A stretch of DNA of 64,000 bases from a virus: positions 1 through 64,000 of the IMG/VR virus record IMGVR_UViG_3300036795_000241; one strand, 5' to 3'. Positions 8,774 through 15,049 of this stretch are shown here, piece after piece. The notes below the pieces were generated by a model. That model was not told the origin of the DNA. It did not search any database and saw only the letters and a program-made list of their open reading frames with translations. Each line of letters starts with the position of its first letter. Within the stretch, counting starts at the first letter, position 1. The position numbers and the translations under genes were made by a program.

Positions 8774-10003
8774 TCAGAACGTGTACTGCGACCGTACGAG
8801 CGAGAGGAAGTCCTCGGTGTCTTTCGCCGCCGCCTGAGCTTCGCGCTTCTCGTCGTCGTCCTCGGGGAGACCGTTGCCGATCAGGTTCCCGAGATCGAGG
8901 ACCTTGATCTGGTTCCCGAAGGCGTGAAGCACGTCTCGCATGACCGCACTGGCGTCGACCTCATCGCCATTCGCCAGGTTGATCGTTCGCGGCTCACCTT
9001 CGAGCAGTGGCCGCGCCTTCTCGGCGATGTACGGCGGGATGCCGAACTTGTTCGCCAGCTGGACCTTCTCCGTCTCGAACGACTGCCTGTCGAGACGCTG
9101 CTGCAGGTTGGTCAGCTGAAGTGTCTGCTGCTCCAGTGCGGCGTTCGCCAGCTCGATCTGCGTACGCCGCCCTCGGTTGCGCGCGGCCACCTTGGTCGCC
9201 TTCACCGGCTCCGGAGTGTCGCCCTCGCTTTCGTCCTCCTCGTCTTCGTCCTCTTCGGGGTCCTCCTCACTTTCGTCCTCGTCGGCCTCGGCGATAAGCC
9301 GGTCGAGCTCGTCGTCGGTGAGCTCGGACTCGTCCTCGCTTCCACTGTTGAGCCCGTCGGTAATCTCCAGTAGGAGATCGAGCTCGTCGTCCGAAAGCTG
9401 GACGCCATCGCCGCCTTCCTTCATCTTCGCGATGATCGCCTTCAGCTTATCCTTCTTCGCCACTTGCACCTCCTCCGCATCGAATTGCGAGTCGGAAAGG
9501 TCGATTACCGTTCCGCCCTCGGTATTACTCAGCGCCGCGACTTCCTGCCACGAGCGCATTCCCGTGATGTGCGGGTCCAGCGTACCCAGTACGTGCTGGA
9601 GTGCCGCACGCCAGCCTTTTCCGTCCGACCGTTCGTAATTCTCGTAGATACGGGCGGAGACTCCGAGATACGGGTTTTCGCGGAGTACCTCTTCGCCTTT
9701 TTCCGTCGGCTCGAGAATCACGTCGAGTCCGTCATCGGTAAGCTCGACACCTACGATTGCCCCGCGAAAGCGCTCCGGGTCATTCGTATGCGAGTTCTTT
9801 CCATCGGCCAGCTGGAACGGTACCTGGTCGAAAGCCTTGTCGTGGAACGATTTGGCGAGATCCGAAAGGTACTCGCGAGTGAACTCGATCTTATTTCCGA
9901 GGTAACTGATCGAGCCCACTGGAAGAAGCTGCTTGCGCCACCGACGATTCCCGAGGTCAATTGCCGGCGTACGCCGCTCGGGCGTGAATACGGTTACCGT
10001 CAT
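8774..10003 (-). CDS. Prohead protease-scaffold (Mu gpI-like)
   Basis: N-terminal domain with SH, GVSARI and LQHVLGTLDPHITGM motifs, then an acidic linker and a coiled-coil scaffold region. Confidence 0.8.
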   Translation of the reverse strand: MTVTVFTPERRTPAIDLGNRRWRKQLLPVGSISYLGNKIEFTREYLSDLAKSFHDKAFDQVPFQLADGKNSHTNDPERFRGAIVGVELTDDGLDVILEPTEKGEEVLRENPYLGVSARIYENYERSDGKGWRAALQHVLGTLDPHITGMRSWQEVAALSNTEGGTVIDLSDSQFDAEEVQVAKKDKLKAIIAKMKEGGDGVQLSDDELDLLLEITDGLNSGSEDESELTDDELDRLIAEADEDESEEDPEEDEDEEDESEGDTPEPVKATKVAARNRGRRTQIELANAALEQQTLQLTNLQQRLDRQSFETEKVQLANKFGIPPYIAEKARPLLEGEPRTINLANGDEVDASAVMRDVLHAFGNQIKVLDLGNLIGNGLPEDDDEKREAQAAAKDTEDFLSLVRSQYTF

Positions 10004-10527
10004 GGCTTCCTCCCGTGCACCGTGAACTGCGTATGCTTGGCGACGATGTACGGATCACCTCCGCCAGCCGGCGTAATCTTCACCGCATTCTTTTGCGACT
10101 TAACCACGTCGTAATTCGTGGTTTCGACCTTCGCAATCTGATGCGGCGGAAGATGCGCAGCGCGCCAGTTTGTAGTGCTAACCGTCATCCCCGGCTTAAG
10201 GTTTATCGCCGTAAGCCTCTTAGCGTTACCGCCAACTCCGGTACTCCGACCTCGAGCAGCTGACGGCTTCTGACCGATGTTTACTGGGTTTACGTGCGTG
10301 GTTCCGCCGCGACCGGAATTCTCGCTTTTCATCCGTTCCGCTGTACGCCGCTTCAACTCCGCACGGATATCCGTTATCGAAACGTTACCGCCGTTTAGCT
10401 GACGCTGCAATTCGGCTGGAGAAAGCTTCGTTAGATCCGGCGTTACGGGTGCGTATGCGCGCTGCTCCGTAGGCGTAAAGCGCGCATTGAGCAAGTCTTC
10501 GGCCCGCCGCTGAGCTGCGGTACTCAT
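10000..10527 (-). CDS. Basic head-region protein with a C-terminal SH3/KOW-like segment
   Basis: NLKPGMTV followed by a beta-rich tail; stop overlaps the protease start. Confidence 0.6.
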   Translation of the reverse strand: MSTAAQRRAEDLLNARFTPTEQRAYAPVTPDLTKLSPAELQRQLNGGNVSITDIRAELKRRTAERMKSENSGRGGTTHVNPVNIGQKPSAARGRSTGVGGNAKRLTAINLKPGMTVSTTNWRAAHLPPHQIAKVETTNYDVVKSQKNAVKITPAGGGDPYIVAKHTQFTVHGRKP

Positions 10528-10586
10528 CCTCGATCCATCCGCAGGCGAAACCAGCTTGCTACCCTCACTGCCCGACCCTGCCGGGC

Positions 10587-12807: not shown

Positions 12808-12815
12808 TCGTCTCC

Positions 12816-13613
12816 TTAGTATCCTTTCGGGCCCTGGTGCGCACTCTTGTAGACACTGATGAGCTCGGCGATGGTCAGCGAACTACGGTATCCGTTACGT
12901 CGCGCCCACGCGCGAACTTCCTCTTCGTCCGGCTCCGACTGCGGCTTACGAATCTGTAGGTTTGCGCCTTCCGTCCGAACGGGAAAGAAGCGACCGCGAT
13001 AGTCGATAACGACTTCCTTTTCGGTCGTTGACGCTACCTTCGCTTTAACCCATCCCGCATCGCTTAGGTAACTCTCAACCGTATCGCCGACTTTATATCC
13101 CGCGGAATTCGGTTCGTCAGCTTGCTGCGAAGCTTCATCCGCGACTTCGGCATTGGCTTCGCGGATGATCGCTTCGTCCTGCTCCTGCGTTACCGTTCCG
13201 CTGGTAATCCCGAAAAGGCGTTCGGCAGCATTCTGGTACGCTGACTCCCACCGTTCCGGCGACACCTTACCCGCTGCGTCAGCGTCCGGAGTACGCGTCG
13301 CGGTACCTAGCTTACGGCTTTCCCGTACCGCGCGTTCGGCTTTTAGCCGTTCGGGATGCCCCTGCGGTAGTTTAGCTCGCGCGTCACTGCGCTGCTGCAG
13401 CAAATCGGCATGCGGTGTCGTACCCGGGATTCCGACGAACTTCCACCCGTGTTCGTATCCGTGCGGACCGACAAACTCCTGCACGTCGTATTCGCCACGG
13501 TTCTGCAGGTCGGTACCCGCCGTGTAGATGTGCGGAACGCCGTCGATCATCTCAATAACGGTGTCACCGGGTTCGATGTCTTCTTCATCGGTATCGGTCG
13601 GGTCTGAGGTCAT
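12816..13613 (-). CDS. Multi-segment head-region protein with SH3/Tudor-like and Lsr2-like C-terminal segments
   Basis: YKVGDTVE..W.KAKV and EVRAWARRNGY motifs; start overlaps the MuF stop. Confidence 0.7.
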   Translation of the reverse strand: MTSDPTDTDEEDIEPGDTVIEMIDGVPHIYTAGTDLQNRGEYDVQEFVGPHGYEHGWKFVGIPGTTPHADLLQQRSDARAKLPQGHPERLKAERAVRESRKLGTATRTPDADAAGKVSPERWESAYQNAAERLFGITSGTVTQEQDEAIIREANAEVADEASQQADEPNSAGYKVGDTVESYLSDAGWVKAKVASTTEKEVVIDYRGRFFPVRTEGANLQIRKPQSEPDEEEVRAWARRNGYRSSLTIAELISVYKSAHQGPKGY

Positions 13614-15049
13614 TGGCGGTACCCCATCTTCTTCTGAGCCTGGCGGAGATTATCGTTCGTGTACGAATACGATCCGATCTGCTCCATTGCCGCGACGTGC
13701 TTCGAGGCGAATTGCGGGAAGGCGTACACGGTAATCGTATTCGTTTCCTGGTCGACAACCTGCACGATTAGCAGTGGCGCAACGCCGGCCTGTCGTACGG
13801 CCGTGTACTTCCGAGCCACCTCATCCGCTTTGATTGCCGTCTTCTGGTTCTTCGCTTTCGCACTGAGCGTCTTTAGTTCGCCACCGTACTTATGGTCGAG
13901 ATGAAAGTCGAGAGGCGTATTCCGGGCACCGAGTCCCGTCTCGCCTTCGGCATGCGAGATAGCGATGTACGGTCCGCCGAATTTCTTGGCGAGCAGGTGC
14001 GCTCCGTGTGCCCGAAATAGCTCTTCGTATGTGTCGCCGATCGAGCTCTTGCTCATCGCTTCGCCGGTATCCGGGTCCACGAAGTTCGACTTCGTCTGAC
14101 CGCCGCGCTTCCGTTTGTCGTCAGCTCGAGTAACGTAATTCGACTGTGAGCCAGCTAGTGGCTGCCACCCGTGCCTATAGTGGTACGCCGTACCGGGGAT
14201 GTGCTCGTGATCCGGTGTCGCAGCTAGCTCAACGACTCGCCTACGCTGTCGTAGCTGACCAACGATACTAGCTAGCGCATACTCACGCACCCCCCTCCGC
14301 TGATTGGATGCTGCCAGTATAGCCGATTCTTCCGGTCCCGGCAACATGGGCGCACCCGCATGCGGCGGACCGGGTTGGCACCGGCAGTGCACGTGAACGA
14401 CACCGGGATATCCGATATCCGGAGGCGCACTGGCGAGGAAGTTCTTTCCGTTCGCCTCACGACATTCCGGTGTCGTTCGATCGTCGTCATGCGAATACCA
14501 TCCGAGAACGGTACCGTGCGTACTCGCCAGTGCATCGATTCGGTTTCCGGCTTCGGTACGACCGTAATCTGCTGCCACGTGCTGATTGAAGTAGCGATCC
14601 TCCGCGGACCGAATCTCCGCTATCGCCTCCTCCCGTGTCGTACCGTTCCGTGCGGCCTCGGCAAGCGCTTCGGCGGATCGCTTTGTCGCCGCATAGATAT
14701 ATGCCGAGCGACGGATGGTGTTTGTCGCCAGCATGCTCTTCTGCGCCGGACCGATTCCGATGTATCGTGGTTGCGGGAAGCGCTCCGCTTCGCTAAGTGC
14801 CAGCTTTAGTGCCGCTCGTCCGATCTCGTTGTTCGCCAGGCCCATCTTCGGCAAGAAGCGCTGCAGCTCAGCGAAGATAAGCAATGGCGAAGCCGCCACG
14901 GCCAATTCCGCGGCGATACTTCCGATTAGTACGGCTGCTTCCGTACCGATTGCCGCCGCTTGGGTTTGCCGCTCTCTCCGCTTTGCCGCCTTATTCTGCG
15001 CCGGTGTCGGACGTTGCGGCTGTACCGTACTAGCCACGCTGCAGGTCAC
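13610..15049 (-). CDS. MuF (Mu gpF/SPP1 gp7-like) minor head protein with a C-terminal PD-(D/E)xK-like nuclease extension
   Basis: W.S..DDRTT.EC...G and PG.VH.HCRC MuF motifs; C-terminal GD..E, PLD and ELKT motifs; follows the portal. Confidence 0.8.
   Translation of the reverse strand: MTCSVASTVQPQRPTPAQNKAAKRRERQTQAAAIGTEAAVLIGSIAAELAVAASPLLIFAELQRFLPKMGLANNEIGRAALKLALSEAERFPQPRYIGIGPAQKSMLATNTIRRSAYIYAATKRSAEALAEAARNGTTREEAIAEIRSAEDRYFNQHVAADYGRTEAGNRIDALASTHGTVLGWYSHDDDRTTPECREANGKNFLASAPPDIGYPGVVHVHCRCQPGPPHAGAPMLPGPEESAILAASNQRRGVREYALASIVGQLRQRRRVVELAATPDHEHIPGTAYHYRHGWQPLAGSQSNYVTRADDKRKRGGQTKSNFVDPDTGEAMSKSSIGDTYEELFRAHGAHLLAKKFGGPYIAISHAEGETGLGARNTPLDFHLDHKYGGELKTLSAKAKNQKTAIKADEVARKYTAVRQAGVAPLLIVQVVDQETNTITVYAFPQFASKHVAAMEQIGSYSYTNDNLRQAQKKMGYRQ

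Follow-up and report, generated by a model that had tools for sequence, protein, structure and literature searches.

Predicted site-plus-header joints in putative capsid-cargo proteins encoded next to a gp21-fold prohead protease of an uncultured phage

The DNA analyzed here (the window) comprises the first 64 kb (64,000 nucleotides, ~ 60% GC) of the 75,683-bp IMG/VR virus record IMGVR_UViG_3300036795_000241, which is rated complete by CheckV and represents an uncultured phage of ~ 76 kb. Between the gene for a MuF-like protein and that for a 409-aa protein with a predicted prohead protease domain lie four extra genes, g265, g294, g407 and g175. Comparison of their products and of a long tail of MuF with the proteins of related phages indicates that such cargo proteins probably enter the capsid and are divided there at joints, each consisting of a short site and usually a conserved peptide, or header, behind it. 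A preliminary description, made from the DNA letters, had proposed that a Mu-type protease releases short tagged effector peptides that are ejected with the DNA. Taken as a whole, this interpretation is partly supported, with the covariation between site type and protease family described below counting in its favor.

The head module is arranged on the minus strand in the order TerL, portal, MuF, four extra genes, 409-aa protein, g146 and major capsid protein (MCP), confirming the layout given earlier. No near-identical DNA was found among GenBank phages. The nearest named relatives, Streptomyces griseus phages (Bogota, UNTPL, Araceli and others) and the Microcystis phage Mwe-JY05, keep the gene order; in them, a single very long protein (1186 aa; 1669 aa) separates MuF from the protein homologous to the 409-aa one, and the 1186-aa protein is annotated as an ADP-ribosyltransferase. 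Scans of IMG/VR with the single protease protein returned no matches and an alignment was needed as query, with which 80 related loci were retrieved. These share the order portal, MuF, a variable 3-8 kb of genes, protease, g146 and MCP. The full order from portal or MuF to MCP is kept in the window and wherever a related locus extends as far as MuF or the portal (24 loci), and the protease-g146-MCP segment recurs in 67-71 of the 80 loci.

The recurring site was initially written as hydrophobic-x-[ED]-[FLY]-[ASV]. With E as the acid, this pattern, picked after the data had been seen, was counted 6 times over MuF and the four genes (1620 residues) and 12 times over the remaining open reading frames (ORFs) of the window (18,865 residues); shuffles yield a mean of 0.47, and none of 2000 reaches 6. 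In the 80 loci the exact form, which has its hydrophobic residue at position -2 from the acid, shows no significant enrichment (1.8x, p = 0.09), and we therefore adopted the refined site [VILA][VIL][ED][LF][ASTVG]. It was counted 49 times in 30.4 kaa (thousand residues) of cargo from relatives and 30 times in 91.4 kaa of other ORFs, an enrichment of 4.9x (p = 4e-12). No such excess is seen for reversed or permuted patterns. An unbiased tripeptide scan of the relatives places HGW, GWI, IEL, GQF and VEL among the most over-represented strings, and 25 of 329 cargo-side ORFs have a leader plus site inside their first 30 residues, compared with 8 of 570 downstream ORFs (p = 4e-6).

Most of the individual cargo sites listed in the preliminary description are backed by homologous positions in relatives. 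A stand-alone homologue of the MuF tail in locus L006 begins at VVELA272, where protein P0141 reads RVVSLA in the matching column; the site is modelled at low per-residue confidence (pLDDT < 50). VQEFV44 of g265 aligns with [IV][ED][LF]V in 19 relatives. At the column of MVELS9 in g294, 25 relatives show x[ED/x][LM]SAxT, and the genes of three relatives begin exactly with MSA(K/Q)T where others read ELSAxT. LREFA120 aligns with AVELAG, AVELS or QIELTG, about ten residues past the end of the conserved g294 module, which is flanked by a site at both edges. In g407, LREFA96 is homologous to ALELS, LVELG or AVELTGPKGY, and the N-module in front of it ends at an [ED]L-small site in all relatives; TVEFA141 aligns with VLEFV or VVELV ahead of GPKGYEHGW in L006, L011 and L017. 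Two further candidates did not hold up: VREYA254 of MuF fits the initial pattern alone and has no conserved counterpart in relatives, and NEYA118 of g407 finds no support by homologous position. Endpoints of HMMER alignments against the window proteins cluster at the sites, which lie at module boundaries and in the protease's own linker, in agreement with the idea that they separate small domains.

The modules between the sites are shuffled in the 80 loci. The g294 module is found in 31 of the 80 loci, in N-terminal, internal or C-terminal position of proteins of 109-1068 aa, and also forms the N-terminus of the Bogota ADP-ribosyltransferase protein. The C-terminal part of g294 gave low-complexity matches only in the all-against-all BLAST. 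The same comparison revealed a 40-aa module shared by g265 (66-105) and the C-terminus of g407 (368-407) at 82.5% identity (E 2e-16). It is basic, reads TPHA.LLQ.R.DARAK.PQGHPERLKAERAVR.SRK and stands directly behind an HGW header in L006 and L010. The g407 protein consists of short modules in a row. Neither Pfam, also at relaxed thresholds, nor PHROGs gave anything for g175, g294, g407 or the MuF tail. The last residues of g265 read HQGPKGY (12816-12833, minus), with the opening five residues of the canonical header placed directly before a stop codon, behind which a Shine-Dalgarno sequence (GGAGA) and the g294 start in another frame are located; this GPKGY may be the relic of an old joint. 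There is no sign of a frameshift or readthrough joining g265 to g294, given the different frames and the Shine-Dalgarno sequence in between.

The short tags pointed out earlier (HYRHGW, HGYEHGW, GHW..KGW and NPYHSSGGQF) turn out to be members of real, conserved header classes. In relatives, the contexts of HGW resolve into a composite joint, hydrophobic-hydrophobic-[E/D]-[L/F]-[V/A/T]-G-P-K-G-Y-x-H-G-W-[I/V], or alternatively ..A-[FY]-R-[FY]-[RK]-H-G-W, with up to three joint copies per protein in the 80 loci. Three interchangeable header classes come after a site, or after a leader of very few residues: GPKGYxHGW[IV], which also has a long form ..H.HI.GT.Y.Y.HGW; [FW]...HPR...G..GG[EQR][FW]; and x-[HY]-VRTxAG..F[FY].EPIG.PI. 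In the alignment of the canonical form carried by g265, G, P, G, H, G and W are invariant. The long form found in MuF recurs in L051, L057, L058 and L015; at the position of the short g294 header relatives read AGAFNSALHPRVAAG..GGQF, and the N-extension of P0057 starts with MAFNSAAHPRVAAGNPTGGQF. Among the named relatives, Mwe-JY05 joins TVELA or VVELA to RYVRT.AGA.RYG.PIG, and gene 9 of Bogota joins VLDFA to ..FRYKHGW, with VLDF followed by AGKFPKGQLAFRYKHGW at residue ~ 382. Synonymous codons vary at invariant header residues, which points to selection on the peptide and rules out a recombination joint at the DNA level as the sole cause of header conservation. In the literature search, the strings GPKGY, YRHGW and HGWIK were absent from phage contexts.

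A 34-column profile of the canonical joint, run against 1.84 billion protein cluster representatives, retrieved 340 proteins (families) at E <= 1e-3 and 53 at E <= 1e-10. Among the top 150 matches, 53 carry 2-3 joint copies, and 43 of 203 headers begin inside the first 30 residues. It could be argued that the recurrence of the motif is a by-product of composition or of post-hoc pattern picking, as the pattern was defined on data already seen and its initial form is not enriched in relatives. Conservation of aligned columns, the number of families retrieved by the profile and the flat permuted controls leave this explanation with a negligible probability; the g294-module alignments, the site enrichment and the profile search effectively refute it.

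The 409-aa protein has no sequence match in Pfam, PHROG or PDB, and its sequence profile gave acidic-linker noise only against the PDB; its family counts > 400 homologues. In the AlphaFold model, residues 1-146 mostly display pLDDT > 90 and are followed by a disordered acidic linker (147-184, pLDDT < 50) and then by long helices. The top Foldseek match of the model is T4 gp21 (5jbl, E 7e-5, probability 1.0), and VIA-align superimposes model residues 1-143 on 5jbl with Z 11.5 and a root-mean-square deviation (rmsd) of 3.2 over 129 aa. Next in rank are the proteases of varicella-zoster virus (Z 8.0) and human cytomegalovirus, both herpes assemblins; sequence identity in the fold matches amounts to 13-17%. 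H72, S116 (in GVSARI) and H137 (in QHVLG) are invariant in an alignment of 36 sequences. On account of the fold match and the helical C-terminal part, the 409-aa protein, as modelled, combines a prohead protease of the assemblin/gp21 fold with a coiled-coil, scaffold-like part. The fold supports the prohead protease of the preliminary description, and its attribution to the Mu type is not established. Pfam gave no match to PF10123 (phage Mu gpI family) at E <= 0.01, and hhalign of the protease alignment with Mu gpI, which pairs GVSARI with YLSAVF (Ser motif) and TLDPHITGM with LTNDPGATGM (DP..GM motif), is not significant (E 0.18, probability 0.3).

The sites noted earlier within the protease-scaffold protein itself fall in conserved columns of the 36-sequence alignment. 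D168 and L169 of VIDLS166 are invariant within the otherwise variable linker. QIELA282 and TINLA340 are conserved in the C-terminal part, where long helices are modelled at 273-320 and 351-375, and a further conserved site, VLDLG368, lies 37 residues before the C-terminus beside a low-confidence segment. Residues 14-18 (AIDLG; 9950-9964, minus), with AVELG, VVELG or AIELS in relatives, lie inside a modelled beta-strand and may serve self-processing at the N-terminus or have a structural role only. A 323-aa highly acidic protein (21884-22855, plus) has Asp/Glu-rich stretches in common with the acidic linker (9200-9400, minus); the similarity extends to the DNA level and is probably low-complexity convergence. 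MCP has neither an N-terminal leader nor a site, and its N-termini are conserved from residue 1 in the relatives compared. Residues 479-483 of the portal (AAELA; 15091-15105, minus) fit the site pattern near the C-terminus; they are not conserved in 12 other related portals and were dropped as probably incidental.

The residues preceding the canonical header follow a narrow scheme, with [I/V/L] at position -4, E/D at -3, L (140 cases) or K (51) at -2 and V at -1. Among the top 150 profile matches, 120 proteins have [E/D]-L-V and 26 have x-K-V joints, and none is mixed, though many contain several joints. The window's protease family is encoded in 16 of the 19 contigs that were found solely via the E-L joint pattern (nine known, seven new) and in none of the 10 IMG/VR contigs with K-type joints (Fisher test, ~ 1.4e-5); since the site types mark different lineages, these counts are not independent events. 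Four of the 10 K contigs match HK97-type Peptidase_S78 at E <= 1e-3, two of them over the Pfam cut-off, and S78 was found in 0 of 10 tested E-L records. In two of three inspected K contigs, the K-type joint and header trail the S78 domain in the same reading frame. In these three (L107, L108 and L109 from records G004, G003 and G005), the S78 domain is N-terminal in open frames of 985, 1265 and 506 aa; an x-K-V-GPxGYxHGW joint follows in frame in L107 and L109 and was not found in L108. An IMG/VR scan with the single K-type protein P0209 gave no match.

Such covariation is the pattern expected if the residues before the header were the recognition site of the phage's own head protease and the header a separate unit. 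A wider reading, which we put forward tentatively and consider on balance doubtful, is that phages of unrelated head-protease families share a portable two-part cargo code. It would combine a protease-matched cut site ([E/D]-L for gp21-like, x-K for S78-type proteases) with one of a few universal headers (GPKGYxHGW, HPR..G..GG[EQ]F, VRTxAG..PIG), which stays on every released N-terminus as a loading, retention or ejection signal. The same data bear on the alternative that a host protease or a peptidase inside the cargo processes the sites. Polyvalent proteins often bear their own metallopeptidases (PMC5512222), and the E-L joints of record G016 occur without a detectable protease of either family. 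In the window, however, no peptidase domain was found in the cargo (Pfam including relaxed thresholds), site type tracks the head-protease family, and a site lies directly behind the protease domain itself, all of which renders a different protease very improbable.

Within the site, the bond joining L/F to the small residue is the most likely place of the cut, as far as the alignments indicate. K of the K-type joints aligns with L, the MSAxT starts align with ELSAxT, and Met is removed before Ser, Ala, Gly, Thr and Val (PMC10052503), so that together these observations favor cutting behind L/F, with a T4-like cut behind the acid as the less favored option.

The mechanism that we consider reasonably likely is that joint-bearing head cargo is cut by the gp21-like protease, kept in the head and delivered with the DNA. 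Its first two steps rest on the loci described above: the region from MuF to the head protease would be a capsid-cargo locus, and the cargo proteins are chains of small modules connected by bipartite linear joints. The first part of a joint is the hydrophobic-[E/D]-[L/F]-small candidate cleavage site (here V-V-E-L-A, M-V-E-L-S, L-R-E-F-A, V-Q-E-F-V, T-V-E-F-A), and the second is usually a header of 10-25 residues from one of the three interchangeable classes. The third step, co-assembly into the procapsid, is speculative; MuF could enter via the portal and the others probably via the header, for which the protease-scaffold protein or the inside of the shell may be the docking partner. From the comparative evidence, we infer as a fourth step that the gp21/assemblin-fold serine protease (H72, S116, H137) cuts the sites, being freed from its own scaffold part at VIDLS, with the scaffold trimmed. 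The released modules would include the PD-(D/E)xK domain of MuF, the Lsr2-like module, the conserved g294 module and others; rather than the short effector peptides envisaged at first, they would be folded modules of 40-200 aa that begin with the tag. In a speculative fifth step, these modules would stay with the DNA in the head, perhaps loaded or retained by their headers, and would presumably be delivered to the host.

Several observations weigh against this mechanism. All 43 N-terminal headers among the top 150 profile matches keep the site, the shortest leader being a single residue (MDLV-GPKGY); a site that is never missing before the GPKGYxHGW header could be a structural part of that header instead of a cut site. 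TINLA340, QIELA282 and AIDLG14 are situated in confidently modelled strand or helix and may likewise be structural. Four of the window sites, with R/Q before E and F/Y after E, deviate from the family consensus, and g175 lacks both site and header and is without a homologue among the 80 loci, leaving its membership in the cargo unproven. The covariation is confounded by lineage, and one complete-rated record of 58.8 kb (L115, IMG/VR_UViG_3300036793_000038, G016) has an E-L GPKGYxHGW joint and matches neither protease family; this exception may have a third protease type. Moreover, the vRNAP of phage N4 is a large polyvalent protein that is packaged uncut, as discussed in PMC5512222.

Part of these observations would fit an uncut docking motif, in which site and header form one structural unit, e.g., a beta-hairpin 'handle' (x-I-E-L-V / G-P-K-G / Y-x-H-G-W-I) that binds the capsid interior, scaffold, portal or protease, with the proteins intact in the virion. 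The obligatory coupling of site and header agrees with such a unit, as do the strand-turn-strand appearance of the sequence, the unprocessed packaging of some polyvalent proteins (PMC5512222) and the 2811-aa polyvalent protein gp47 of phi24B, which was found in the virion proteome and proposed to be capsid-packaged. Sites without any header exist, however, on either side of the g294 module and within the linker of the protease. Three unrelated header classes are preceded by the site, one and the same header is preceded by a different pair of residues depending on the protease family, stand-alone genes start at the site, and the region is predicted to be disordered. With these points set against it, we regard the docking motif as unlikely, and cutting at the joints as the better reading.

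One of the modules predicted to be released is the tail of MuF. The score of the window MuF for PF04233 (26.3 bits) is below the cut-off of 29.6; its gene stands directly after the portal, and tblastn with it leads to Streptomyces phage genes that bear the annotation MuF-like or capsid morphogenesis. Relatives' MuF proteins have 215-240 aa and end at residue ~ 240, and the window MuF has an extra tail, followed by g265 as the next gene. In a model of residues 270-479, the end of the site and the header (276-307) have pLDDT < 50 and the domain behind them > 90. The best match of the latter is the Hjc resolvase 1gef (Z 9.3, rmsd 2.7 over 102 aa), followed by 2wcw (Z 8.6), and most of the other top-ranked entries are nucleases of this fold that act in restriction, homing, splicing and recombination. 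The motifs PLDF and GGELKTL do not vary in the alignment of the tail. With fold and D...(D/E)xK motif both present, the modelled tail is a PD-(D/E)xK nuclease fold and effector-like, as had been suggested. The tail (309-477) is a separate gene in L006, L010, L012 and L014, and in different relatives the family is headed by any of the three header classes. Other cargo of relatives includes DUF7178, 2H phosphoesterase and GNAT domains, carried by proteins of 1000-1250 aa, as well as the Bogota ADP-ribosyltransferase protein.

These domains also bear on the possibility that the proteins serve assembly, being cut at the sites mostly for clearance from the head before DNA packaging, and are not effectors. 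Within the window, MuF with its nuclease is the sole candidate for a polypeptide with at least two effector-type domains, and several other modules look, by sequence, like DNA-binding or low-complexity internal proteins and not like toxins. An assembly role would suit the long low-complexity, coiled-coil-like tail of g294, the scarcity of enzyme folds in the window modules, the presence of the same sites in the protease-scaffold protein and the general departure of cleaved propeptides from the head (PMC10052503). The nuclease fold with an intact D..ExK on MuF, the 2H, GNAT and ADP-ribosyltransferase domains of relatives and the highly variable gene content of the locus, unlike that of core assembly genes, speak against it and make this alternative quite unlikely. 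Table 1 lists the positions of all features.

Table 1. Features of the head module and of the candidate cargo proteins, with residues of the protein and positions in the window
Feature	Residues	Position	Strand	Basis or remark
Large terminase TerL		16607-18415	minus	
Mu-type portal		15030-16625	minus	PF06074, E 1e-30
MuF-like protein	479 aa	13610-15049	minus	
MuF head-morphogenesis domain	MuF 1-240	14330..15049	minus	PF04233, tblastn, ends of relatives' MuF
VREYA	MuF 254-258	14276..14290	minus	initial candidate, unsupported
Joint site VVELA	MuF 272-276	14222..14236	minus	predicted cleavage site
Long HGW-type header ATPDHEHIPGTAYHYRHGW	MuF 277-295	14165..14221	minus	predicted disordered
PD-(D/E)xK nuclease-fold domain	MuF 319-479	13613..14095	minus	predicted; D381, E391, K393 invariant
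Four extra genes (g265, g294, g407, g175)	265, 294, 407, 175 aa	10000-13613	minus	
Joint site VQEFV	g265 44-48	13470..13484	minus	
GPKGYxHGW-type header GPHGYEHGWKFVGIPG	g265 49-64	13422..13469	minus	canonical form
40-aa module TPHADLLQQR...AVRESRK	g265 66-105	13299..13418	minus	
Lsr2-like DNA-binding C-terminus, weak	g265	12819..12923	minus	PF23359, E 0.0015, 18.3 bits, under cut-off
Joint site MVELS	g294 9-13	12769..12783	minus	
Conserved cargo module	g294 14-112	12472..12768	minus	TPAP.GKPGGPGLY ... HPEVRAAA
Joint site LREFA	g294 120-124	12436..12450	minus	
Short header ANPYHSSGGQF	g294 125-135	12403..12435	minus	HPR..GGQF type
g294 C-terminal part	g294	11926..12402	minus	Ser/Thr/Ala/Lys-rich, low-complexity, coiled-coil-like
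Conserved g407 N-module	g407 1-95	11526..11810	minus	19 loci
Joint site LREFA	g407 96-100	11511..11525	minus	overlaps ATEL
Joint site TVEFA	g407 141-145	11376..11390	minus	
Degenerate header GSGGHWVGLGRGKGW	g407 146-160	11331..11375	minus	aligns with GPKGYEHGW[IK]YVG
40-aa module, second copy	g407 368-407 (C-terminus)	10590..10709	minus	
g175	175 aa	10000..10527	minus	overlaps protease start by 4 nt
Protease-scaffold protein	409 aa	8774-10003	minus	
Prohead protease domain	protease 1-146	9566..10003	minus	predicted from fold and invariant residues
VIDLS	protease 166-170	9494..9508	minus	predicted self-release site, disordered linker behind protease domain
Scaffold-like helical C-terminal part	protease 273-409	8777..9187	minus	QIELA282, TINLA340, VLDLG368 conserved
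g146, head scaffolding-like protein	146 aa	8296..8736	minus	phrog_673, E 9e-12; beside MCP in 67 loci
MCP		7228..8253	minus	phrog_1650, E 1e-69

Elsewhere in the window, a QueC-domain protein (53344-54780, plus; PF06508, E 8e-41) suggests 7-deazaguanine DNA modification, and a family A DNA polymerase is fused to an N-terminal domain of the uracil-DNA glycosylase superfamily (55732-58290, plus).

Cargo, mature cargo ends and loading signals are known for a minority of phages, and a recognizable joint would allow cargo modules, which often include anti-defense enzymes, to be annotated from sequence. It would also account for an unannotated protease-scaffold family of > 400 members and provide a candidate tag for protein loading into phage capsids. 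Should the two-part code be true, it would offer a rule by which, across hundreds of phage families, injected proteins could be predicted together with their mature ends, as well as a tag for loading foreign proteins into the heads of such phages. The covariation of site and protease makes the idea directly testable in cultured Streptomyces phages.

The arrangement of the protease-scaffold protein resembles that of herpesviruses, in that a protease is fused to a scaffold with one site behind the protease (here this would be VIDLS166) and one near the C-terminus (VLDLG368). The herpesvirus assemblin-scaffold polyprotein has a release (R) and a maturation (M) site with the consensus (V/L)-x-A|S (Welch 1991, cited in PMC5512222). 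The differences are the other site consensus, the low identity in the fold matches and the lack of cargo proteins in herpesviruses.

Packing and processing of such proteins by phages is already established by T4, phiKZ/SPN3US and the Dar system of P1. In T4, the internal proteins IPI-III and Alt have a capsid targeting sequence (CTS) that is processed by gp21 (Mullaney and Black 1996, via PMC9024508; PMC9026906). The window shares with T4 the protease fold, as its top structural match, a short acidic cut motif, and head-packaged proteins including enzymes that are delivered with the DNA after removal of N-terminal leaders, with cutting, packaging, delivery and leader removal being predicted here. 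The T4 targeting signal, in contrast, is a removed N-terminal leader, cut at L/I-x-E. The leaders here have 1-30 aa and are unconserved, which sets these proteins apart from CTS cargo; the conserved peptide lies behind the site and would therefore stay on the product, unlike the CTS. Joints are here also internal, linking several modules, and the phage has a Mu-type portal and a MuF gene, with Streptomyces phages as nearest named relatives.

In phiKZ, 201phi2-1 and SPN3US, many head and ejection proteins are cut at a short motif, which ends in Glu, with self-cutting of the protease at its C-terminal side and multiple cuts per protein (PMC10052503, PMC5694885). These jumbo myoviruses differ in their [A/S/G]-x-E sites, which were mapped by mass spectrometry and nearly all remove N-terminal propeptides, and no conserved post-site header has been described for them. 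The Dar proteins of P1 are anti-restriction head cargo, some members of which are processed, but their loading is stepwise through DarA and Hdf (PMC9024508, PMC12810830). DarB's N-terminal 30 residues suffice for capsid loading (PMC9024508); this signal, considered as a relative of the headers, has no resemblance to any of the three.

There is also a likeness to polyvalent proteins (Iyer, Burroughs, Anand, de Souza, Aravind 2017, PMC5512222) and to MuF polymorphic toxins (PMC5576092). They, too, are MuF-linked multi-domain proteins of the head-gene cluster, with shuffled modules (2H, GNAT, ADP-ribosyltransferase, nucleases) and predicted packaging and injection, and polyvalent proteins sometimes have an assemblin-like peptidase in the same polypeptide. 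The MuF toxins combine a MuF N-domain with a C-terminal toxin and a downstream immunity gene (PMC5576092); no immunity gene was recognized behind the window MuF, where no search aimed at one was made. No linear joint motif or header was found in the searched parts of the two papers. For polyvalent proteins, processing is proposed to be performed by peptidase domains inside the protein (PMC5512222), whereas in the window a separate protease-scaffold gene and a bipartite joint would organize a set of short proteins of 175-479 aa.

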